Below, piece by piece: positions 1,966 to 27,881 of a stretch of DNA of 32,000 bases. A model generated the notes under the pieces. The model was not told the origin of the DNA. It did no database searches and saw only the letters and a list, made by a program, of their open reading frames with translations. The position numbers and the translations under genes are program-made. Every line of letters starts with the position of its first letter. Within the stretch, counting starts at the first letter, position 1. Source of the DNA: Candidatus Electrothrix sp. GW3-4 (GTDB lineage: Bacteria > Desulfobacterota > Desulfobulbia > Desulfobulbales > Desulfobulbaceae); the NCBI RefSeq assembly GCF_037902255.1, contig NZ_CP147990.1:2250001-2282000 (forward strand), in the 5' to 3' direction.

Positions 1966-2286
1966 ATGAGCAAAATGACAGAAGCAAAAAAACGAGATTT
2001 TGTCACGCAGATCATCACTCTTGTTGAAGAAAACCAGGAGGTGTTGACCGACAAAGGCTTTGACCCCACTGAGCGGGTTGACGAACTTAAAAACAAGAAA
2101 ACTACTGCCGACACAGCGGAAATTGAACAGCAGGAAGCGGCTGCCAAGGCCAAAGAGGCCACAGCTGAGGCCAACCGCACTCTGGATGACGCCTATAACG
2201 ACGCCTCCGACTTTGCCGACCTGATCTCCGGTCTGCTGGGCAAAGATGACGAGTTGGTCAAGAAGATGCGGAAATTCAGAAAATAA
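1966..2286 (+). CDS. Hypothetical 106-aa protein, likely helical and rich in charged residues
   Basis: Clean ATG ORF with sequence MSKMTEAKKRDF...KKMRKFRK. No family recognised. Its stop lies 5 bp before the tandem array. Confidence 0.55.
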   Translation: MSKMTEAKKRDFVTQIITLVEENQEVLTDKGFDPTERVDELKNKKTTADTAEIEQQEAAAKAKEATAEANRTLDDAYNDASDFADLISGLLGKDDELVKKMRKFRK

Positions 2287-2290
2287 CTTT

Positions 2291-2644
2291 CCTTGGTACG
2301 CACCTTCATCCCCCATTGACGCAGCGTTCTCCCCAAGGGGCGAAGAGTAATCCCCTGGTGACGCAAGTCTATCCCCAAGGGGATCATGCTTGGTCACAAG
2401 GTACGAAGCATTATCCCCTAGTGACGAAAGACCATCCCCAAGGGGATTATGTTCCGTCACAGGTGACGAGGCCCTACCCCCCCGGTGACGCAAGGCTATC
2501 CCCCGGTGACGCAAGGCTATCCCTCGGTGACGAACGATTATCCCCAAAGGGATCGTAGCCGGTCACAAGGTACGAGGGCTTATCCCCTTGTGACGCATGA
2601 CAATCCCCAAGGGGAGAAAGATTGTCCCTGAAAAGCGTGACCAC
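2291..2644. repeat. Degenerate tandem array, about 17 units of 20-22 bp, consensus roughly TCCCCNNGGTGACGCAAGGCTA, with a 63-64-bp higher-order repeat
   Basis: Read directly. TCCCC/CCCC cores recur every 20-22 bp. An exact 21-bp duplication covers 2482-2523. Palindromic cores ATCCCCAAGGGGAT are at 2371-2384 and 2434-2447. T-run at 2645-2650. Confidence 0.9.
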
Positions 2645-2780
2645 CTTTTTTCTGTCAATTCATGGCAGATTGCGGAATAATGGGGCGAACGGTATGTCCT
2701 GATTTCAGGACGCGGGTCGCATCGCGCGGTCTCCTGTTGAATCGAACAAGATGTTGAGAGAATAGCTGAATTCACTAAAA

Positions 2781-3647: not shown

Positions 3648-5006
3648 ATGAGTAAACACGTTTATATAAAGACCTTTGGCTGCCAGATGAATGAGCGGGA
3701 CTCGGAAATCATGGCTCAGCTCCTGGCCCAATCCGGCTATATCCCGGTGGCGGAACAGACAGATGCTGATCTGGTGATCCTCAACACCTGTTCCATTCGC
3801 GCCAAGGCGGAACAAAAAGTCTTCAGCCTGCTCGGATCGCTCCGTAAGCAGAAAAAACAGCAACCGGAACTCCGCATCGCCGTGGCAGGCTGTGTGGCCC
3901 AGCAGGAAGGCGAACAGATCTTCCGCCGCATGCCCCATGTAGATATCGTGGTGGGCACCCAGCAACTCTATCAACTCCCGGAAATGCTCGGGCGCCTTGA
4001 ACGAAACGAAACGAAACGAGAGATTTCCTGCAATCTGGACAAGGAATTTACCATCCCTCCCTTCCAACGATTGCTTGAGGATGCCCCTCATCAGCTCGCA
4101 GCGTTTCGCAAATTCGTCACCATTATGCAGGGCTGTAATAATTATTGCAGCTATTGTGTAGTGCCAAGCACCCGTGGACGGGAGATCAGCAGACCGGTCG
4201 CAGATATTCTGGAAGAAGTACGCCTTCTCGTGGCGCGGGGTATCAAGGAGATCACCCTGCTGGGCCAGAACGTTAACTCTTATGGCTGCACCAATGCGGT
4301 TGCTGAAGAGCCCACTGGCTTTGCTGACCTGCTCACAATGGTTGCGGCAGTACCAGGGGTACAGCGACTCCGCTTTACCACCTCAAATCCCCAGGATCTC
4401 TCCACCGAGCTGATGCAATGCTTCCGTGATCTCCCCAACCTCTGCCCACAGTTTCATCTCCCCGTGCAGGCCGGTTCCAATGCCGTGCTCAAACGAATGA
4501 ATCGCAAATACACCAGAGAGCTGTACCTGGAAAAGGTTGCAGAGTTGCGCTCCTATTGCCCGGACATCGCCATAGGTACCGATGTTATAGTTGGCTTTCC
4601 CGGCGAAACAGAGGAGGATTTTGAGCAGACCATGGATCTGCTGGAGACCGTGCGCTTTCACGGTTCCTTCTCCTTTAAGTATTCAGACCGACCCCATACC
4701 CGCTCAACGGATTTCAGTGATAAGGTCGAGGAGCAGGTAAAAGGTGAACGGCTCCAGCGCTTTCAAAACCGCCAGGATGCCATCAGTCTGGAGCGCAATC
4801 AGGAATTCCTTGGTAAGACCGTTGAGGTTATGATTGAAGCCAACAGATCATCTGGAAGCCAAGGCCGAACAGGGACAAACCATATTGTTCACTTTACCTC
4901 CCCCACCAACCTCCTGCCCGGTGACCTCGCTCTTGTCACGATCACCCATGCAGGCCAGCACTCCCTCAAAGGAGAACTGGCAGATAAAGAAAAATCTAAT
5001 CGTTAG
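3648..5006 (+). CDS. miaB: tRNA-2-methylthio-N6-dimethylallyladenosine synthase (radical SAM methylthiotransferase)
   Basis: N-terminal YIKTFGCQMNERDSE, radical-SAM motif CNNYCSYCVVP, C-terminal TRAM region. Length is 452 aa. Confidence 0.92.
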   Translation: MSKHVYIKTFGCQMNERDSEIMAQLLAQSGYIPVAEQTDADLVILNTCSIRAKAEQKVFSLLGSLRKQKKQQPELRIAVAGCVAQQEGEQIFRRMPHVDIVVGTQQLYQLPEMLGRLERNETKREISCNLDKEFTIPPFQRLLEDAPHQLAAFRKFVTIMQGCNNYCSYCVVPSTRGREISRPVADILEEVRLLVARGIKEITLLGQNVNSYGCTNAVAEEPTGFADLLTMVAAVPGVQRLRFTTSNPQDLSTELMQCFRDLPNLCPQFHLPVQAGSNAVLKRMNRKYTRELYLEKVAELRSYCPDIAIGTDVIVGFPGETEEDFEQTMDLLETVRFHGSFSFKYSDRPHTRSTDFSDKVEEQVKGERLQRFQNRQDAISLERNQEFLGKTVEVMIEANRSSGSQGRTGTNHIVHFTSPTNLLPGDLALVTITHAGQHSLKGELADKEKSNR

Positions 5007-21122: not shown

Positions 21123-22652
21123 ATGATCACCGGAGAACTTAAATCCAAGGTGGACAGCATCTGGGACACCATGTGGTCTGGCGGCATATCCAACCCGCTC
21201 ACAGTTATTGAGCAGCTGACCTACCTGCTCTTTATCAAGCGGCTCGACGAGCTGCACATCTTGGCTGAGCACAAGGCCAACCGCCTGGATAAGCCCATTG
21301 AACAACCGATCTTCAGCAAGGATCAGGAGCAACTACGTTGGTCCCGTTTTAAGGAAACAGCGCCTGAGCAGATGTTCCTTACGGTCAAGGATGAAGTTTT
21401 TCCCTTTATCAAGACCCTGGGCAACGGAGAGACCAGCGCAGAGGAGAAAGAAAACCGTCAGGAAGAATCGCCAAGTCACCTCGTTCAGGTTGCTGAAAGC
21501 GATGTTGCGTATAAACATGCGTATCAAGAGGAGAGCGTGGCAGAGGAGGACAAGACAGAGAAAGAGGTCTGGAAAAAAGACTCCACAGACTCCACCTATG
21601 CCCATCATATGCGGGATGCCCTGTTCATGATCCCCACCCCACGGGTGCTGGCCAATGTGGTGGATCAGCTGGCAGGCATTGAGATGGCAGATACCGACAC
21701 CAAGGGTGATCTTTACGAGTACATGCTGGGCAAGATTGCCTCGGCAGGCCAGAACGGCCAGTTCCGCACCCCGCGCCACATCATCCGCCTGATGGTGGAC
21801 ATGTGCGCGCCCACGCCCAGGGATCTGATCTGCGATCCGGCCTGCGGTACAGCGGGTTTCCTGATTGCGGCCTCAGAATATCTCCAGCAGCACCACAGCA
21901 GCGAGATCTATCAGAGCGAGGCGAGCCGCCGCCGCTTTAATCAGCTGGATGAGGAGAAGTACTCCCTGCTCCTGGCCAATCCGCCCTTTGCAGGCAGTCT
22001 GGATTACGAGTCCATTGCCAAGGATCTGCAACAGGTGGTCAAGACCAAGAAGACCGAGCTGCTCTTTCTGGCCCTGTTTCTCCGTCTGCTGCGGACCGGC
22101 GGTCGAGCTGCGGTCATTGTCCCGGACGGGGTTCTGTTCGGATCAAGCAAGGCCCATAAGACGTTGCGCAAGATCTTGGTGGAGGAGCAGAAGCTGGACG
22201 CGATCATCTCCATGCCCTCGGGGGTGTTCAAGCCCTATGCCGGGGTGTCCACGACCATCCTCTTTTTCACCAAGACCAACTCTGGGGGCACGGATCAGGT
22301 TTGGTTTTACGACATGCGCTCGGATGGCTTTTCTTTGGATGATAAACGGAGCCCGCAACCGGACAAGAGCAATCTGCCGGATATCCTCGCTCGCTGGCAG
22401 GATTTTCAGGCAGGGTGTACGGCTGAGGCAAAACGCAAGCGTACTGAGCAGAGCTTTCTGGTGCCCAAGGAAGAGATTGCTGGTAATGATTATGATCTGT
22501 CCATCAACCGTTATAAGGAAGTGGTCTACGAGGCCGTGGAATATGATCCGCCGGGGGTTATTCTGGGGCGGTTGGCTGCGCTGGAGCAGGAGATTGCGGC
22601 TGGGCGGGTTGCGCTGGAGGGGTTGTTGGGAGAAAAGGCTATACACGCGTAG
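21123..22652 (+). CDS. hsdM: Type I restriction-modification system methyltransferase subunit HsdM (atypical: acidic insertion, and motif II/III segment apparently missing)
   Basis: HsdM_N-type N-terminus (LKSKVDSIWDTMWSGGISNPLTVIEQLTYLLFIKRLD). GQFRTPRHII, motif I DPACGTAGFL, motif IV NPPFAG, GRAAVIVPDGVLFGS, and C-terminal YDLSINRYKE. Confidence 0.88.
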   Translation: MITGELKSKVDSIWDTMWSGGISNPLTVIEQLTYLLFIKRLDELHILAEHKANRLDKPIEQPIFSKDQEQLRWSRFKETAPEQMFLTVKDEVFPFIKTLGNGETSAEEKENRQEESPSHLVQVAESDVAYKHAYQEESVAEEDKTEKEVWKKDSTDSTYAHHMRDALFMIPTPRVLANVVDQLAGIEMADTDTKGDLYEYMLGKIASAGQNGQFRTPRHIIRLMVDMCAPTPRDLICDPACGTAGFLIAASEYLQQHHSSEIYQSEASRRRFNQLDEEKYSLLLANPPFAGSLDYESIAKDLQQVVKTKKTELLFLALFLRLLRTGGRAAVIVPDGVLFGSSKAHKTLRKILVEEQKLDAIISMPSGVFKPYAGVSTTILFFTKTNSGGTDQVWFYDMRSDGFSLDDKRSPQPDKSNLPDILARWQDFQAGCTAEAKRKRTEQSFLVPKEEIAGNDYDLSINRYKEVVYEAVEYDPPGVILGRLAALEQEIAAGRVALEGLLGEKAIHA

Positions 22653-22673
22653 CCAATTCATCGGGTTCATCTG

Positions 22674-22704
22674 GTTCCCAAGCTCCGGCTTGGGAACTGT
22701 TTTA
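22674..22704 (+). terminator. Hairpin plus short T-tract after hsdM (terminator-like)
   Basis: GTTCCCAAGC-tccg-GCTTGGGAAC is a perfect 10-bp stem, followed by TGTTTTA. Confidence 0.5.
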
Positions 22705-22788
22705 CCTGAAGCTCTGCTTCATGTCTCGAAGTTGGAGTTTCTGTATTAAGGGTACCCAAGCAGAGCTTGGGCACCAGGACGAAAAGGA

Positions 22789-23020
22789 GACGTTTGTTTC
22801 TTGCGAGAGGTCTTTCTTTTGTAAAGAGAGGCTCTGCTCTTCTTGCGAGAGGCTCTACTCTTCTTGCGAGAGGTTCTACTCTTTTAAAGAGAGGTGTCGC
22901 TCTTTTTTCGAGAAGCTGCTCGTTTGATAAAAGCGGTTCTTCCTCTCAAGAGAGGAGAGGTTCTTGTTTAACGAGGAGCCGTGCTGTTGTTACGAGGAAG
23001 CTGTACTGCAAAGAATGTAT
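22789..23020. repeat. Degenerate tandem array, 11 units with a 21-bp period, consensus GCTCTACTCTTCTTGCGAGAG
   Basis: Read directly. Unit boundaries fall at 22789, 22810, 22831, 22852, 22873, 22894, 22915, 22936, 22960, 22979 and 23000. Units at 22831 and 22852 are 20/21 identical. The array degrades toward the 3' side. Confidence 0.9.
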
Positions 23021-23066
23021 CGCCTGTTGCGGACAAGACAGGGGCATTGAGCTTTTCGCTCTTGCT

Positions 23067-23168
23067 GCCCAGCGTTAAAACGCTGGGCTATTGGCGGGCT
23101 GTCCCTCCGGGACGCTTTTACCGCCCCGGAGGGGCCGAACGATAATAGCCCAATGTTTTAACATTGGG
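23067..23168. repeat. REPIN-like nested imperfect palindrome (two inverted ~45-bp arms, each carrying its own hairpin)
   Basis: Hairpin A is GCCCAGCG-ttaaaa-CGCTGGGC (23067-23088). The outer stem pairs GGGCTATT (23085-23092) with AATAGCCC (23144-23151). The inner stem pairs CCCTCCGGG (23103-23111) with CCCGGAGGG (23125-23133). Hairpin B is CCCAATGT-ttta-ACATTGGG (23149-23168). Confidence 0.8.
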
Positions 23169-23255: not shown

Positions 23256-24437
23256 GTGAAGGTTGAAATAGTGGGTGAAGGTGGTGGTAGCATTAGAGAT
23301 GCTGAGATGACGTGGGTTGATAAAAAACTTGGCGAGCTTGCAAAAATTTGCACCGGCAAACTCGACGCGAACGCAAGCTCGGAGAATGGCAAATATCCTT
23401 TTTTTACATGCGCACGACAACCTCTGCGAATCAACAGTTACAGCTATGACGGTGAATGCGTACTTGTCGCAGGAAATGGAGATTTAAACGTCAAATATTA
23501 TGAAGGTAAATTCGATGCGTATCAGCGAACCTACATTATTAAGGTCCGCCCGGAGTTAAGAGATTCGCTTTCTCTTGGTTACGTATATCATTTTCTTGAA
23601 ACATATCTTGAGACACTCAGAAAGCAAAGCATTGGTGGGATCATAAAATACATCAAGCTTGGAAATTTAACTAAAGCTCCAATCCCCCTCCCGCCCATAT
23701 CCGAGCAAAAACGCATTGCAAAAATCCTGAATGCAGCAGACGCCCTACGGGCCAAACGCCGAGAAGCCCTCGCCCAACTCGACACCCTCCTGCAATCCAC
23801 CTTCCTGAATATGTTCGGCGATCCGGTCGCCAATCCGATGGGGTGGAAAATGGGGCGTTTGGCAGATATTGTCGAGCGTCTCGATGGTGGCAAAAATGTT
23901 GCCCAATCTGAAACGAAAACTGACTATCGCGTCCTTAAGGTCAGTGCAGTGACATACGGAGTATATCGACCCGAAGAAAGCAAATACCTTCCCGCTGATT
24001 TCAACGTTCCAGAATCCTACATCGTTAAAAGTGGCGATCTGTTGATCAGTCGAGCAAATACCACCGAGCTGATAGGGGCGACGGCTTATGTCTGGGAAAC
24101 ACCGGAAAGAATCGCACTTCCCGATAAAATCTGGAAGTTCATCTGGAAAAATGATGCCCAAATCGAACCGTTGTTTATTTATCATCTGTCTCAACATATC
24201 GAGTTCCGCCGCATCCTTGCTAGCCGTGCCTCGGGAACTAGCGGTTCCATGAAGAATATCGCGAAATCAAAGCTTCTTAGCTTGCCAGTTCCCCTCCCAC
24301 CCCTCCCTCTCCAACACCGCTTCGCCACCATAGTAAAATCCGTAGAACAACAAAAGTCCCGGATGAAAACTCACCTGACCGAACTGGACACCCTGTTCGC
24401 AGCCCTCCAACAACGAGCCTTTAACGGAGACCTCTAA
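23256..24437 (+). CDS. hsdS: Type I restriction-modification system specificity subunit HsdS (two TRDs)
   Basis: Central conserved region PLPPISEQKRIAKILNAADALRAKRREALAQLDTLLQSTFLNMFGDP. C-terminal conserved region LPVPLPPLPLQHRFATIVKSVEQQKSRM..LDTLFAALQQRAFNGDL. GTG 23256 has AAGGAG 7 nt upstream; the alternative start ATG 23307 (MTWVDKKLGEL) looks more like a typical HsdS N-terminus. Confidence 0.85.
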   Translation: MKVEIVGEGGGSIRDAEMTWVDKKLGELAKICTGKLDANASSENGKYPFFTCARQPLRINSYSYDGECVLVAGNGDLNVKYYEGKFDAYQRTYIIKVRPELRDSLSLGYVYHFLETYLETLRKQSIGGIIKYIKLGNLTKAPIPLPPISEQKRIAKILNAADALRAKRREALAQLDTLLQSTFLNMFGDPVANPMGWKMGRLADIVERLDGGKNVAQSETKTDYRVLKVSAVTYGVYRPEESKYLPADFNVPESYIVKSGDLLISRANTTELIGATAYVWETPERIALPDKIWKFIWKNDAQIEPLFIYHLSQHIEFRRILASRASGTSGSMKNIAKSKLLSLPVPLPPLPLQHRFATIVKSVEQQKSRMKTHLTELDTLFAALQQRAFNGDL

Positions 24438-24443
24438 TCCACC

Positions 24444-27400
24444 ATGAGCAACTTCGCCTTCCTGCCCACCGAGTTCCGCACCATCGCCGAATCCGCAATC
24501 AAGGCGGAAGGCCACATCATGGGCGACCCGCGTGCTGCCTGCTTCCATGCCCGCTTCACCCTGGAAGCCATTGTCCACTGGCTCTACCGCCACGACAGCA
24601 GCCTCCACCAACCCTATGCCCGCAACCTGGGTGCCCTGCTTTATGAAGCCACCTTTCAGGATCTCCTGCCCCAGCCCGTGTTGCACAAGGCCCAGCTGAT
24701 CCACAAGCTCGGTAATGCAGCTGTCCATAACACCCGGTCCGTGCCCAGCAGCGACGCGCTTCAGGCGGTCAAAGACCTCCACCATTTCTGCCACTGGCTG
24801 GTGCGGACCTACAGTCCTTCTGCTGTCCTGAAAACATCGGGTTGGCGTGATGATCTGGTGTTGCCAGCCCTGGACAGCAAAGCCGTGGTGCCGCGCAAGG
24901 AGCTGGAAACCCTGGAGAGCCGGTTAGCGGCCCAGAACGAAAAGAGCCTCAAGCAACAGCAGGAACGGGATGTCCTAGATGCGGAAATTCAGGCCCTGCG
25001 GGAACAGCTCACAGCTCTCCGGGTCCAGTCTGAGCAGCAGATTGATCCCCATGACTACTCTGAGGCCGAGACCCGGCACGCCCTGATCGACGTGGACCTG
25101 CACCGGGCTGGCTGGCCCCTGGCTGATCCCCAGGATCGGGAATACAAGGTCAGCAATATGCCCACTTCCACCAGCACCAGCACCGGTATCGGTATCGGCA
25201 TTGGCTATGTCGATTATGTGCTCTGGGGTGATGACGGCAGGCCCCTGGCCGTGGTGGAGGCGAAAAAGAGCACCGCAGATCCCCAAGCAGGTCAGCAGCA
25301 GGCCAAGCTCTATGCGGACTGCCTGGAGCAGATGCATAGTCAACGCCCGCTCATCTTCTACACCAACGGCTACAGCACTTGGCTCTGGGACGATACCAGC
25401 TATCCGCCCCGGCAGGTGGCTGGTTTCTACTCCAAGGACGAGCTCACCCGCCTGATTCTTCGCCGCAACCGTTGCACACCCCTGAAGCAGCTCAAGGTCA
25501 AGGAGGCAATCGCGGGCCGCTATTACCAAATCCGGGCCATCCGTAGTATTGCGGACCAATTTACCGAGGCCCGCCGCAAGGCCCTGCTGGTCATGGCCAC
25601 GGGAACCGGTAAGACCCGAACCGCTATCGCCTTGGTGGATATCCTCCAACGGGCCGGGTGGGTGAAGCGGGCCCTGTTTCTTGCGGATCGGATCTCCCTG
25701 GTCAGGCAGGCCTGCAATGCCTTTAAGGAGCATCTGCCCGAATCCAGCCCGGTGAATCTGGTTACGGAAAAGGGCACTGAGGGCCGGGTGGCGGTCTGCA
25801 CTTACCCCACCATGATGGGTCTGATAAATAAAACCATGAACGAGGACAAGGGGACAGCGGCCCGCCAGTCTTGCCAGTCCTGTTTTGGAGTGGGCCATTT
25901 TGACCTGATCATCATTGACGAGGCCCACCGCTCCGTGTACCGGAAATACGGGGCCATCTTCCGTTATTTCGATGCCCTGCTGGTCGGTCTGACCGCCACC
26001 CCCCGTGAAGAAGTGGACAAGAACACCTATGACCTCTTTGAGCTGGAACAGGGCGTGCCCACCGATGCCTATGAGCTGGCCGAGGGCGTTAAGGACGGCT
26101 TCCTGGTGCCGCCCCGGGTGGCCCAGGTGGATATGCGCTTTCCCGGCCAGGGTATTGATTATGATCTGCTCAGTGCCGAGGAACAGGCCCAATGGGAAGA
26201 ACTGGACTGGGGTGATGATGGGGAGCCGGATCGCTTCCCGGACAAGGTCAATGCTGCGGCCATCAATAACTGGCTCTTTAACCAAGACACAGTGGACAAG
26301 GTGCTCAAGTATCTTATGGAGCATGGACATCGGGTGGAAGGCGGGGACCGGCTGGCCAAGACCATCATCTTTGCCCGTAACCACCAGCACGCTGCCTTTA
26401 TTGAGGAACGTTTTAATGCCAATTATCGAAAGTATGCTGGCCATTTTGCTCGGGTGATTGATAATACCATCAAGCATGCCCAGAACCTGATTGAGGAATT
26501 TGAGCAACAGGATAAGGCACCCCATATCGCCATCTCCGTGGACATGCTGGACACCGGCATTGATGTGCCTGCGGTGGCCAATCTGGTCTTTTTTAAACCG
26601 GTCTTTTCCAAGATCAAATTCTGGCAGATGATCGGACGCGGCACCCGACCCTGCCCGGATCTCTTTGGTCCTGGTGAGGATAAGCAGGACTTTCGGGTCT
26701 TTGACTTCTGCTTTAATTTTGATTTTTTTCAGGAAAACCCAGAGGGCATCAATGCCGGGGATACTGCCCCGCTGGGTACTCGCCTTTTTCAGGCACGGGT
26801 TCAGTTGCTCAGTCATATTCAGTCCCGCCCTGAAACCGATGCAGATGCTCAGCTGGCAACGAGCCTGACAGATGGCCTGCACCGGGAGGTCAAGGCCATG
26901 CACCGGGATAACTTCATTGTCCGCATGCATAGGCAGGCAGTGGAGCAGTTTCAGGAGCGCACAGCCTGGGACCGGCTCAGCGAGAGCGATTGTATGACCC
27001 TGCAACGGGAGGTGGCAGGCCTGCCCAGCGAGCTTGCCAGCGACAATATCCGGTCCCGGCTCTTTGACCTCACGGCCCTGCGTATGCAGCTGGCCCTGAT
27101 CGAGGGCGGCAGCTTTGAGCGTCAGCGCAGGCGGGTCATGGAGATTGCCCAGCTGCTGGAAGAGAAACGGGCTGTCCCGGCAGTAGCGGTCCAGCTGGCC
27201 TATCTTGCTAGGGTCCAGGAAGACGGCTTCTGGCAAGGGATGACTCTGGCCGAGCTGGAGGATCTCCGCCTTCGCTTCCGGGAGCTGGTGCCCTTGCTGG
27301 ACAAGCAGGAGCGCAATTTGGTGTACACGGATTTTCAGGACGAGGTTCTGGGGGTGCGGGAAGAGGAGCCGGTCTATATCCCCAGGATGACCGGGGCCCA

Positions 27401-27881
27401 GTATGAAAAAAAGGTCACGGACTATTTGCGCTGCCATACAAACCAGCTGGTCATCCAACGCCTCAAGGCCAATGAACCCCTCACCAGCCTGGACCTCCAG
27501 GGCCTGGAAAGCGTACTCACCGAGCTCGGGGCAGAGGAAGGCGAAACCCTGCTTGCTGACCTGCTGTCCCGGAGCAAGGCCCCCTCGCTGCCCCATTTTA
27601 TCCGCTCCCTGGTGGGCCTGGATCGAACCGCTGCCAAGGCTGCCTTTGCCCAGTTCCTCAACGACCGCAGCCTGACAGCTCCGCAGATCCGTTTTATCGA
27701 GCTGATCATTGACCAACTCACGGCACGGGGCGTGATGAATGCCGAGGCCCTCTACCAGCCCCCGTTCAGCAACCTCCATTCCGGTGGACCGGAAGTACTC
27801 TTTTCAGGTAAGGAAAATATCATTGAGGGGGTCTTTACCACTCTGGAATCTCTGGCACCCCGGATCCAAGAGGTTGGCTGA
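24444..27881 (+). CDS. hsdR: Type I restriction enzyme R subunit HsdR (DUF4145 N-domain, PD-(D/E)xK nuclease, SF2 helicase, EcoEI-type C-terminal domain)
   Basis: The nuclease core is GYVDYVLWGDDGRPLAVVEAKK. Helicase motifs are MATGTGKT, DEAH (IIIDEAHR), LTATP and QMIGRGTR. The N-terminal ~125 aa resemble DUF4145. Confidence 0.9.
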   Translation: MSNFAFLPTEFRTIAESAIKAEGHIMGDPRAACFHARFTLEAIVHWLYRHDSSLHQPYARNLGALLYEATFQDLLPQPVLHKAQLIHKLGNAAVHNTRSVPSSDALQAVKDLHHFCHWLVRTYSPSAVLKTSGWRDDLVLPALDSKAVVPRKELETLESRLAAQNEKSLKQQQERDVLDAEIQALREQLTALRVQSEQQIDPHDYSEAETRHALIDVDLHRAGWPLADPQDREYKVSNMPTSTSTSTGIGIGIGYVDYVLWGDDGRPLAVVEAKKSTADPQAGQQQAKLYADCLEQMHSQRPLIFYTNGYSTWLWDDTSYPPRQVAGFYSKDELTRLILRRNRCTPLKQLKVKEAIAGRYYQIRAIRSIADQFTEARRKALLVMATGTGKTRTAIALVDILQRAGWVKRALFLADRISLVRQACNAFKEHLPESSPVNLVTEKGTEGRVAVCTYPTMMGLINKTMNEDKGTAARQSCQSCFGVGHFDLIIIDEAHRSVYRKYGAIFRYFDALLVGLTATPREEVDKNTYDLFELEQGVPTDAYELAEGVKDGFLVPPRVAQVDMRFPGQGIDYDLLSAEEQAQWEELDWGDDGEPDRFPDKVNAAAINNWLFNQDTVDKVLKYLMEHGHRVEGGDRLAKTIIFARNHQHAAFIEERFNANYRKYAGHFARVIDNTIKHAQNLIEEFEQQDKAPHIAISVDMLDTGIDVPAVANLVFFKPVFSKIKFWQMIGRGTRPCPDLFGPGEDKQDFRVFDFCFNFDFFQENPEGINAGDTAPLGTRLFQARVQLLSHIQSRPETDADAQLATSLTDGLHREVKAMHRDNFIVRMHRQAVEQFQERTAWDRLSESDCMTLQREVAGLPSELASDNIRSRLFDLTALRMQLALIEGGSFERQRRRVMEIAQLLEEKRAVPAVAVQLAYLARVQEDGFWQGMTLAELEDLRLRFRELVPLLDKQERNLVYTDFQDEVLGVREEEPVYIPRMTGAQYEKKVTDYLRCHTNQLVIQRLKANEPLTSLDLQGLESVLTELGAEEGETLLADLLSRSKAPSLPHFIRSLVGLDRTAAKAAFAQFLNDRSLTAPQIRFIELIIDQLTARGVMNAEALYQPPFSNLHSGGPEVLFSGKENIIEGVFTTLESLAPRIQEVG

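Follow-up and report, generated by a model that had tools for sequence, protein, structure and literature searches.

In a 32-kb stretch of DNA from Candidatus Electrothrix sp. GW3-4, a cable bacterium (the whole stretch is hereafter called the window), a tandem array of short dyad-symmetric units directly follows the gene of a small helical protein. Comparison with related loci showed that this array is typical of a previously undescribed, cross-phylum pairing, present in cable bacteria as well as in marine Bacteroidota and further bacteria, between one family of small helical proteins and dyad arrays phased strictly at 21 bp. The arrays hold their phase strictly, are built by a dyad and half-site logic, are linked to the gene, and lack the signatures of coding sequence and of RNA folding. 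The reading that we favour on the sequence evidence, albeit tentatively, is that the array provides dyad sites on duplex DNA, phased on one helical face, that may nucleate a cooperative nucleoprotein complex. No element of this kind was found in Rfam, Pfam, PADLOC, PHROGs, the Protein Data Bank (PDB), or the searched literature, which contained no description of this element, in agreement with a preliminary description of the window that knew of no match. The features of the gene–array pair are as follows.

1966 to 2286, plus strand: gene of the small protein, 106 aa (the annotated product starts at the ATG at 1975 and has 103 aa)
2291 to 2644, no strand: tandem array, about 17 units with a 21-bp period
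2291 to 2476: phase block 1, nine units in exact 21-bp register, from the phased print and the spacings
2371 to 2384: perfect palindromic core ATCCCCAAGGGGAT, type X.X′, matching on both strands, with a second copy at 2434 to 2447
2455 to 2468: palindromic core CGTCACAGGTGACG, type Y′.Y, with the perfect palindrome GTCACAGGTGAC inside it at 2456 to 2467
2477 to 2483: C7 homopolymer run, the sole phase slip (+1) of the array (ATCCCC at 2434, then at 2498, a gap of 64 nt)
2484 to 2644: phase block 2, eight units in exact 21-bp register, including the near-identical copies at 2479 to 2532
2622 to 2650, plus strand: array end, GTCCCTGAAAAGCGTGACCACC followed by a T6 run (2645 to 2650)

Each unit consists of a 12–14-bp dyad or pseudo-dyad, TC[C/A]C[C/A]-N2-[G/T]G[G/T]GA, and a 7–9-bp spacer. 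Two types of half-site make up the dyads: X (ATCCCC) and Y′ (CGTCAC), whose complements are X′ (GGGGAT) and Y (GTGACG). They combine freely as X.Y, X.X′ (ATCCCCAAGGGGAT), and Y′.Y (CGTCACAGGTGACG). Because the two types are mixed in both orientations, the array acquires a 63-bp super-repeat and the look of uneven (22 + 20) units. Tandem Repeats Finder (TRF) detected a 63-bp period at 2334–2503 (2.7 copies, 74% matches) and a 21-bp period at 2479–2532 (2.6 copies, 96% matches), and a repeat search of the window found 137-nt copies at 2310, 2373, and 2479, separated by 63 and 106 nt. The degenerate core ATCCCCNNGKKRM matched 10 times in the window, nine times within the array, compared with a mean of 0.31 and a maximum of 3 in shuffled sequences, and imperfect copies of the ATCCCCAAGGGGAT core were seen near 2330, 2540, and 2603. 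Successive ATCCC motifs were spaced by 42, 21, 42, 21, 64, 21, 21, 42, and 21 nt; the phase of the array is exactly 21 bp throughout, with the exception of the +1 slip. The preliminary description had reported about 17 units with a 21-bp period and a 63-bp super-repeat, a 21-bp tandem duplication, perfect palindromic cores, and a start 5 bp after the stop codon of the 1966–2286 open reading frame (ORF). These points were all borne out (the duplication as a near-exact copy, the cores at 2371–2384, 2434–2447, and 2456–2467, and the start 5 nt past the TAA at 2284–2286), and its claim that the unit length wanders between 20 and 22 bp was wrong. The first two units of phase block 1 are degenerate, and they are conserved in the orthologous loci L045–L047.

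The link between the array and the upstream gene was evident in the related loci. In 43 genome loci reached via the protein, TRF arrays with periods of 21, 42, 63, 84, 105, or 126 nt lay just downstream of the gene. When all fetched loci were pooled, 49 of the 54 evaluable family loci displayed 21-nt-multiple periodicity in the 700 nt that follow the gene, with an identity of 52% or more at some multiple of 21 nt; just three loci passed at 24 control lags, as did 0.17% of background windows. The linked loci come from Desulfobulbaceae, Marinilabiliales, and GC-rich metagenome contigs, and remote homologue loci (L053, L055–L057) also carry arrays. Periods of 21, 42, 63, 84, 105, or 126 nt accounted for 37 of the 39 TRF arrays near the gene, and diverse periods were found elsewhere in the loci. 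No other neighbor was conserved, the small gene being the only one common to the 43 compared loci; a similarity of translated repeats among GC-rich loci proved to be an artefact. Thus, the preliminary description erred in seeing no cognate gene beside the array: the adjacent hypothetical gene is its conserved partner across phyla.

The small ORF is a real coding gene, since it differs from its orthologue in L045 at 5, 3, and 20 first, second, and third codon positions, an excess at third positions. Its product was 100% identical to WGN25_10060 of Ca. Electrothrix sp. GW3-4. Homologues were recovered as 84 word-indexed matches and, in a profile search of 1.84 billion representative proteins, as 226 clusters (50% identity) at E ≤ 1e-3, and 17 residues were invariant among 19 diverse family members. 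The family is present in Electrothrix, Electronema, GC-rich metagenome contigs, and many Marinilabiliales, including Draconibacterium, Maribellus, Carboxylicivirga, Mariniphaga, Gaoshiqia, and Sunxiuqinia; cultured carriers are Maribellus mangrovi, Draconibacterium sediminis, Gaoshiqia sediminis, Mariniphaga sediminis, and Carboxylicivirga, and two or three paralogues often occur in one genome. The AlphaFold2 (AF2) model of the protein (predicted local distance difference test [pLDDT] score, 95) was all-helical, with helices at residues 6–22, 24–29, 35–91, and 96–105, one of them about 57 residues long. The protein is acidic overall with conserved basic termini (KKRDF and KKMRKFRK), and naturally tandem-duplicated (fused) members yielded a confident pseudo-dimer model (pLDDT 93, predicted template modeling score 0.78). 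Searches of Pfam, NCBIfam, PADLOC, and PHROGs returned only sub-threshold noise (DUF6987 at E = 0.0015, FlgN, and a type VII secretion system effector), three family members submitted to PADLOC had no match, and PDB and structure searches with the models found generic helical bundles, none of them significant. A tblastn search with the protein found no match in 72,556 plasmids, 50,697 phages, or IMG/VR, and a plasmid or phage origin was rejected accordingly.

We then compared the arrays with one another. Across arrays, 204 of 212 spacings between copies of the same k-mer were exact multiples of 21 and the other eight were off by 1–2 nt; since the register is this strict although the spacers have diverged by about half, indels have probably been selected against. 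The unit sequences themselves are lineage-specific, consisting of a short dyad xxxCC-N2–4-GGxxx and then a 7–9-nt spacer, with examples such as TATCC/GGATA, TTACC/GGTAA, ATTCC/GGAAT, GTACC/GGTAC, CAACC/GGTTG, TGACC/GGTCA, TGTCC/GGACA, and TCCCC/GGGGA. Even the paralogues of a single genome, Draconibacterium X8, differ in their cores (GTACC in L011, ATTCC in L013, and CAACC in L028). Two freely combining half-site types recur elsewhere (ATTCA with CGGCA in L005, CTTAC with CTGAC in L057), and in L055 a CGGGA-type motif repeats every 10–11 nt or so, as judged by eye from the phased print. The whole 21-nt unit and its semi-conserved 7–9-nt spacers differ from the 23–50-nt repeats and unique spacers of a CRISPR array.

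Three syntenic metagenomic orthologues of the window locus (L045–L047) encode a protein 95% identical to that of the window and keep both array flanks, and the interior of their arrays is a 42-nt super-repeat of X.Y and X.X′ units, unlike that of the window. The three arrays are equal in length, and those of L045 and L047 diverge at roughly 5% of their positions, in part through unit-to-unit exchanges. Between L049 and L008, the array is as conserved as the gene (89% each). All motif matches of L032 are on the minus strand, all those of L045–L047 are on the plus strand, and the L032 unit is the reverse complement of the window X.Y unit, spacer included. These comparisons suggest that the array evolves in concert yet keeps its length and register. 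A neutral minisatellite without function would explain why the unit composition differs between close relatives, and the preliminary description had named a strain-specific, unconserved minisatellite as the ordinary explanation. This is hardly tenable given that the gene–array pairing is kept across phyla, that the spacers have diverged while the 21-bp register has stayed strict, and that the length is conserved among variants.

The 3′ ends of the arrays displayed further regularities. A conserved non-repeat tail, [G/T]TAAAAnCGCTGAAAG-N5-TG-N6-GGGATT, closes many Bacteroidota arrays (L016, L018, L020–L026, L030, L037, and L042) and has a counterpart at 2622–2641 in the window; here, the array end GTCCCTGAAAAGCGTGACCACC resembles the tail AAAAcCGCTGAAAG...GGGATT of the Prolixibacteraceae-type arrays, and L045 has CCCCGGAAAGCGGCGAGC at the same spot. 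GTAAAA-type ends related to this tail were seen in L053 and L055. A reading of the tail as codons (K-x-A-E; K-x-A-E-S/R...G-I) was inconsistent across loci and was dropped. The paralogue arrays of L008, L049, L051, and L052 are composite, with about six TCCCC-type units followed by about 12 AT-richer units of the CGAATCATGACAAAACACTAC type in the same 21-nt register (e.g. L049 4340–4720), and the hairpin GGGGCGACCGGCGGTCGCCC closes those of L008, L049, and L051. A mobile element with terminal inverted or direct repeats was also rejected, as the conserved left hairpin and the right tail were no more alike than shuffled sequences.

According to the reading that we favour, the array would be a cis-acting element that works as double-stranded DNA. 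About 17 two-fold-symmetric sites, placed exactly two helical turns (21 bp) apart, would all lie on the same side of the helix; a dimeric factor tolerating two half-site variants would bind them cooperatively, and this binding might build a long nucleoprotein filament or solenoid, conceivably serving anchoring, insulation, topology, or segregation. The strict register, the dyad logic, and the presence of two uncompensated half-site variants match cooperative dimeric DNA binders on one helix face. The upstream small helical protein would be the likeliest binding factor, or else an adaptor docking on the complex: it is the only candidate partner because it is the only gene linked to such arrays, and the fused pseudo-dimers would suit a protein that reads dyads. 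The preliminary description had proposed binding sites phased on one face of the DNA alongside a structured or sponge RNA, and the evidence favors the former.

Several observations weigh against this reading. The small protein is acidic and has no helix-turn-helix (HTH), ribbon-helix-helix (RHH), or other DNA-binding fold. The core type does not track the protein phylogeny: the proteins of L010 (ATTCC) and L022 (TTACC) look nearly identical, as judged by eye from the alignment, despite their different cores, and L009 and L042 share the core TATCC yet have divergent proteins. No dyad copy was present within 300 nt upstream of the gene in 23 loci, a result that also eliminated an autoregulatory operator with a decoy array. 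Arrays of the same build occur without the small gene, which accompanied only six of 77 arrays found by motif. Finally, the cable-bacterium array is almost certainly transcribed, as it abuts the stop codon.

A wider interpretation, possible but rather doubtful, is that the gene and the array represent a new two-component system, widespread among bacteria, in which proteins that have no nucleic-acid-binding fold known so far assemble on long in-phase arrays or else create and maintain them. The arrays would then evolve concertedly and in a paralogue-specific manner as an undescribed chromosomal landmark or scaffold, and orphan arrays would be additional sites for the same machinery.

The almost certain transcription of the cable-bacterium array raises the question of whether the array acts as RNA, either as a stabilizer or terminator resembling repetitive extragenic palindromes (REPs) or as a multi-site decoy titrating an RNA-binding protein, possibly the small protein itself. 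The transcript would be the 3′ untranslated region of the small gene in cable bacteria and a separate or read-through RNA in Bacteroidota. In line with this idea, the window array starts 5 nt after the stop codon and has a T-run at its end, and the orphan arrays in L168 and L112 likewise begin directly past a stop codon. Most palindromic arrays fold far better than shuffled sequences (z-scores of −4 to −12), some super-repeats contain mutually complementary spacers (ATCATAGATAT with ATATCTATGAT), the window arms at 2378–2394 and 2403–2419 are 88% complementary, and there is a weak bias toward C over G on the gene strand (24 of 34 arrays). The folding scores are strand-symmetric, however, and are close to zero in the closest orthologue L045 (+0.3/+0.2), L032 (+1.0/−1.1), and L013; self-complementarity is common among the arrays but is not a conserved property. 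Departures from pairing in the local dyads of 26 arrays were overwhelmingly one-sided, comprising 293 one-sided mismatches, 54 one-sided G-U pairs, 23 compensated double changes, and 33 uncompensated ones, so that compensatory covariation was absent; nor was there a G-U strand bias, as G-U pairs numbered 73 on the gene strand versus 90 on the opposite strand. Moreover, the unit orientation relative to the gene flips (L032 versus L045–L047), a dyad with a 2-nt center cannot close a loop unless C-G pairs open, and function as RNA gives no reason for a strict 21-nt register. In Bacteroidota, a canonical intrinsic terminator (GC hairpin and T-run) separates the gene from the array, which starts 40–250 nt past it with no recognizable conserved promoter before the array. 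We therefore regard an RNA function as unlikely, although it retains some weight.

Particular classes of RNA were also considered. Rfam yielded nothing relevant in the window at the gathering score, in 2100–2850 at E ≤ 10, or in 20 related loci. A CsrA-type sponge was rejected because no more than three units of the window have AAGGU in a loop and the orthologue has none; a CsrB/RsmZ-type sponge is characterized by GGA in hairpin loops and an Rfam match, and here there was no Rfam match and the hairpins were not conserved. In type III toxin–antitoxin systems, ToxI, made of 5.5 × 36-nt RNA repeats, is followed by a terminator and then toxN. The loci described here resemble them in being two-part modules, with the array and the protein gene separated by a terminator and a context that is often rich in defense and toxin–antitoxin genes. 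Unlike these systems, the gene comes first and the array lies downstream, the protein does not belong to the ToxN/AbiQ-type endoribonucleases and was not matched by PADLOC, and the units are shorter, dyad-symmetric, and without an RNA signature.

Since 21 nt equals seven codons, the array could in principle encode a heptad-repeat peptide, either as a separate ORF or by extending the small protein through frameshift or read-through. The frame xxC CNN GGx lacks stops over 110–140 codons in L008, L049, L051, and L052 and, in the window, over 2250–2558; a peptide LL(T/N)KLEQxFG follows the paralogue arrays of L049, L051, and L052, with variation mainly at third codon positions as judged by eye; and gene callers sometimes call or fuse array regions, as in P0188. 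Conversely, every one of the six frames is interrupted by stops in nine arrays (L002, L003, L005, L013, L028, L036, L038, L042, and that of the window), and frames open over the whole array are no commoner on one strand than on the other (13 arrays each). The codon-position differences between orthologous arrays were 9/10/17 and 7/1/7, as against 5/3/20 in the gene; this lack of a third-position excess, together with the six-frame stops, disfavors coding. The +1 slip breaks the window frame, the apparent frame of the tail clashes with the open array frame in L022 and L024, and there is neither a slippery site nor a conserved start codon. Coding is thus very improbable. The preliminary description was right that the array is non-coding, as shown by the stops and the missing third-position bias, but its argument from a variable unit length does not hold for a period of strictly 21 bp; the degenerate repeat-protein gene that it had offered as an ordinary explanation fails as well. 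In L053 (3001–4278), a gene caller had merged a tandem-duplicated family member and its downstream array into a 425-aa protein, P0188, whose C-terminus (NIRTTVR ISRTPVR...) is translated array; fusion artefacts like this one may hide arrays in protein databases.

Arrays also occur away from the small gene. A scan of metagenome contigs for two cable-type cores 21 nt apart gave 120 loci, of which 77 had 21-periodic arrays and six of these carried the small gene; the arrays of L061, L090, and L130 are probably coding heptads, and others plainly belong to the type found in the window. Near-perfect arrays of 15–25 units of GATCCCCCAGGGGAAGTTGAG were found in GC-rich (0.63–0.72) soil contigs (L068, L073, L083, L097, L101, L109, and L153), which contained no small-gene homologue and no common flanking protein. 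In L112 and L117, 22 copies of TAGATCCCTGAGTGACTCGGG lie directly after a membrane-protein gene, and in L168 an array directly follows a gene for a NACHT-domain NTPase. Within 4.3 kb, L170 has three cable-type arrays (1130–1390, 2050–2373, and 3930–4118) among PIN/antitoxin and HigB/HigA cassettes, an arrangement that recalls cassette arrays. The window contains a second array of its own:

22798 to 23007: second array, about 10 units with periods of 21 and 63 bp, of an unrelated unit TTCTTGCGAGAGGCTCTACTC with arms AGAG/CTCT

This array occupies a 600-nt gap between hsdM (21123–22652) and hsdS (23256–24437) of a type I restriction-modification operon, with hsdR at 24444–27881, and has no small-gene homologue nearby. 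GC-rich hairpins that look like REP-type extragenic palindromes flank it at 22672–22697, 22752–22776, 23066–23090, and 23095–23135; the pairs are GTTCCCAAGC..GCTTGGGAAC, GGTACCCAAGC..GCTTGGGCACC, and CCCAGCGTT..AACGCTGGG, and the GGGGCGACCGGCGGTCGCCC hairpin of the paralogue arrays is similar. The linkage thus runs in one direction: the arrays form the broader class, and the small gene is a component that is almost never without one.

REPs are 20–40 nt long and irregularly spaced and occur as tens to hundreds of dispersed copies per genome, the REP-associated tyrosine transposase (RAYT) is an HUH Y1 transposase, and the pairing of RAYT with REP doublets (REPINs) is known in Proteobacteria. Orphan arrays suggest a comparable explanation, namely a dispersed extragenic repeat resembling REPs or bacterial interspersed mosaic elements (BIMEs), spread and homogenized by recombination or transposition at gene 3′ ends. 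There would be no nucleoprotein machine, and the small gene would be a favored neighbor or a domesticated maintainer, as RAYT is for REPINs. The arrays are indeed extragenic imperfect palindromes that alternate in orientation, as in BIMEs, and cluster in tandem at gene 3′ ends; a genome contains several types of unit, cognate repeats flank a gene present in single copy, and some copies are dispersed. The same architecture recurs in L170, L168, the GC-rich soil contigs, and the second window array. The interior turns over fast between syntenic orthologues (window versus L045) as the flanks stay, and the changes that separate L045 from L047 resemble unit-to-unit conversions. Against this explanation, chance falls far short of accounting for the association with a single protein family in 49 of 54 loci from different phyla, further 21-bp arrays were almost lacking in about 280 kb of Bacteroidota flanking DNA, where arrays are essentially confined to the small gene, and nine of the 10 window matches of ATCCCCNNGKKRM lie inside the array. 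The strict 21-bp register and the equal lengths of the L045, L046, and L047 arrays are likewise unlike REPs, and the partner is a 106-aa helical bundle with no HUH Y1 transposase fold. No transposase was consistently adjacent; one candidate neighbor, cluster C11 (L004 and L015), had no Pfam match at E ≤ 1e-5. We consider a dispersed repeat of this type improbable.

The duplex-DNA reading invites comparison with known arrays of protein-binding sites. Plasmid centromeres include the 12 × 43-bp repeats, each with a dyad, at sopB–sopC of F, the 10 × 11-bp repeats of R1 ParR–parC, and the 20-bp repeats bound by pSK41 ParR. As in these systems, short sites, many of them dyad-symmetric, are arrayed in tandem next to a gene for a small protein (dimeric in centromere systems). 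This adjacency, usual for partition genes and centromeres, was seen here in 49 of 54 loci, and it is from this linkage that we infer the partner role of the protein. The arrays are also lineage-specific and differ between paralogues, and a cooperative dimer superstructure would be expected. Unlike plasmid centromeres, no ParA, ParM, or TubZ NTPase is encoded nearby (43 compared loci and the window neighbors), the loci are chromosomal with no plasmid or phage relatives, the arrays are longer (10–25 units), and some have no gene. The small protein also differs from centromere-binding proteins in being acidic and without an RHH, HTH, or winged-helix fold (AF2, PDB, and Pfam). The iterons of theta plasmids are spaced by about two turns (7 × 22 bp in R6K, 19 bp in P1 and F). 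Our arrays are similarly direct repeats about two helical turns apart that adjoin a protein gene (the binder's, for iterons), but there is no Rep (winged-helix) initiator, as no neighbor is conserved, and no plasmid context, the units are far more numerous, and the dyads stand in both orientations. The iteron and centromere labels of the preliminary description therefore fail, as the loci lack a Rep, a Par NTPase, and any known centromere-binding fold and do not lie in a plasmid or phage context.

A parallel with nearly identical geometry is offered by phased response-regulator sites such as those of BvgA~P at Pptx and Pfha, where BvgA~P is documented to bind as six head-to-head dimers to weak, degenerate 14-bp dyads with 22-bp spacing on one helical face (PMC7250471). 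The units described here likewise combine a dyad of about 14 bp with a spacer of about 8 bp, so that the centers are about two helical turns apart on one face, and have many weak, degenerate half-sites. They differ in that BvgA arrays comprise 3–6 sites in promoters, whereas here 10–25 sites lie downstream of a gene, stand in no relation to a promoter, and are not accompanied by a NarL-type regulator.

A conserved protein family accompanied by a strictly phased array is the type of regularity that earlier revealed CRISPR-cas, par-parS, and RAYT-REPIN. The family is uncharacterized and is present in cultured Marinilabiliales as well as in cable bacteria, so the pairing is directly testable in the cultured carriers. 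If the array is a protein-binding scaffold, it would represent a new mode of DNA recognition by a helical-bundle protein and would provide naturally orthogonal protein–site pairs, as there are three different cores in one Draconibacterium genome. It would also offer a handle on chromosome organization in cable bacteria, which are not yet genetically manipulable.

The right-hand side of the module in the window is defined by two further features.

2652 to 2681, plus strand: promoter-like site for the downstream livG-like gene, forming the right-hand module boundary; this flank is kept in L045–L047
2781 to 3593: downstream gene, LivG-type ATP-binding cassette ATPase with ABC_tran and BCA_ABC_TP_C domains

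The domain matches agree with the livG gene named in the preliminary description, and a CsgG-like lipoprotein gene is the other neighbor of the gene–array pair.

On the left-hand side, the small gene of the window is preceded at 1925–1965 by a C/A-rich leader, CAACAACCTCAACCCCACACAACATC, without a Shine-Dalgarno sequence. The leader is kept in L044, L045, and L048, which suggests efficient translation independent of a Shine-Dalgarno sequence. In the Prolixibacteraceae-type loci L010, L013, L016, L018, L019, L022–L025, L037, and L042, a conserved region precedes the small gene, at about −230 to −40 nt. It contains a promoter-like TTGAC-N19-CATAATTTG and a hairpin, GCCACCTG..CAGGTGGC, preceded by an A-run and displaying compensatory changes (GCCGCCC/GGGCGGC in L013). 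The region had no Rfam match; it may represent either a 5′ leader with structure or a terminator on the minus strand.

The neighbors of the small gene are not conserved and are often of the defense or mobile-island type. In three Prolixibacteraceae genomes, L004 (3995–4312), L005 (2435–2755), and L015 (3995–4312), the gene lies inside a type II CRISPR locus, with cas9 on one side and cas1 on the other, accompanied by its array in L005 and L015, and in several Prolixibacteraceae it stands beside genes for a Schlafen-like helicase (DUF2075) and an HNH protein. In cable loci, its neighbors are toxin–antitoxin, RhuM/Fic, and PIN genes. The recurrence of toxin–antitoxin, restriction-modification, CRISPR, and Schlafen-like helicase neighbors might point to a defense or mobile-island role. 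L053 lies in a prophage-like region with genes for a CI-like repressor and a collagen-like protein.

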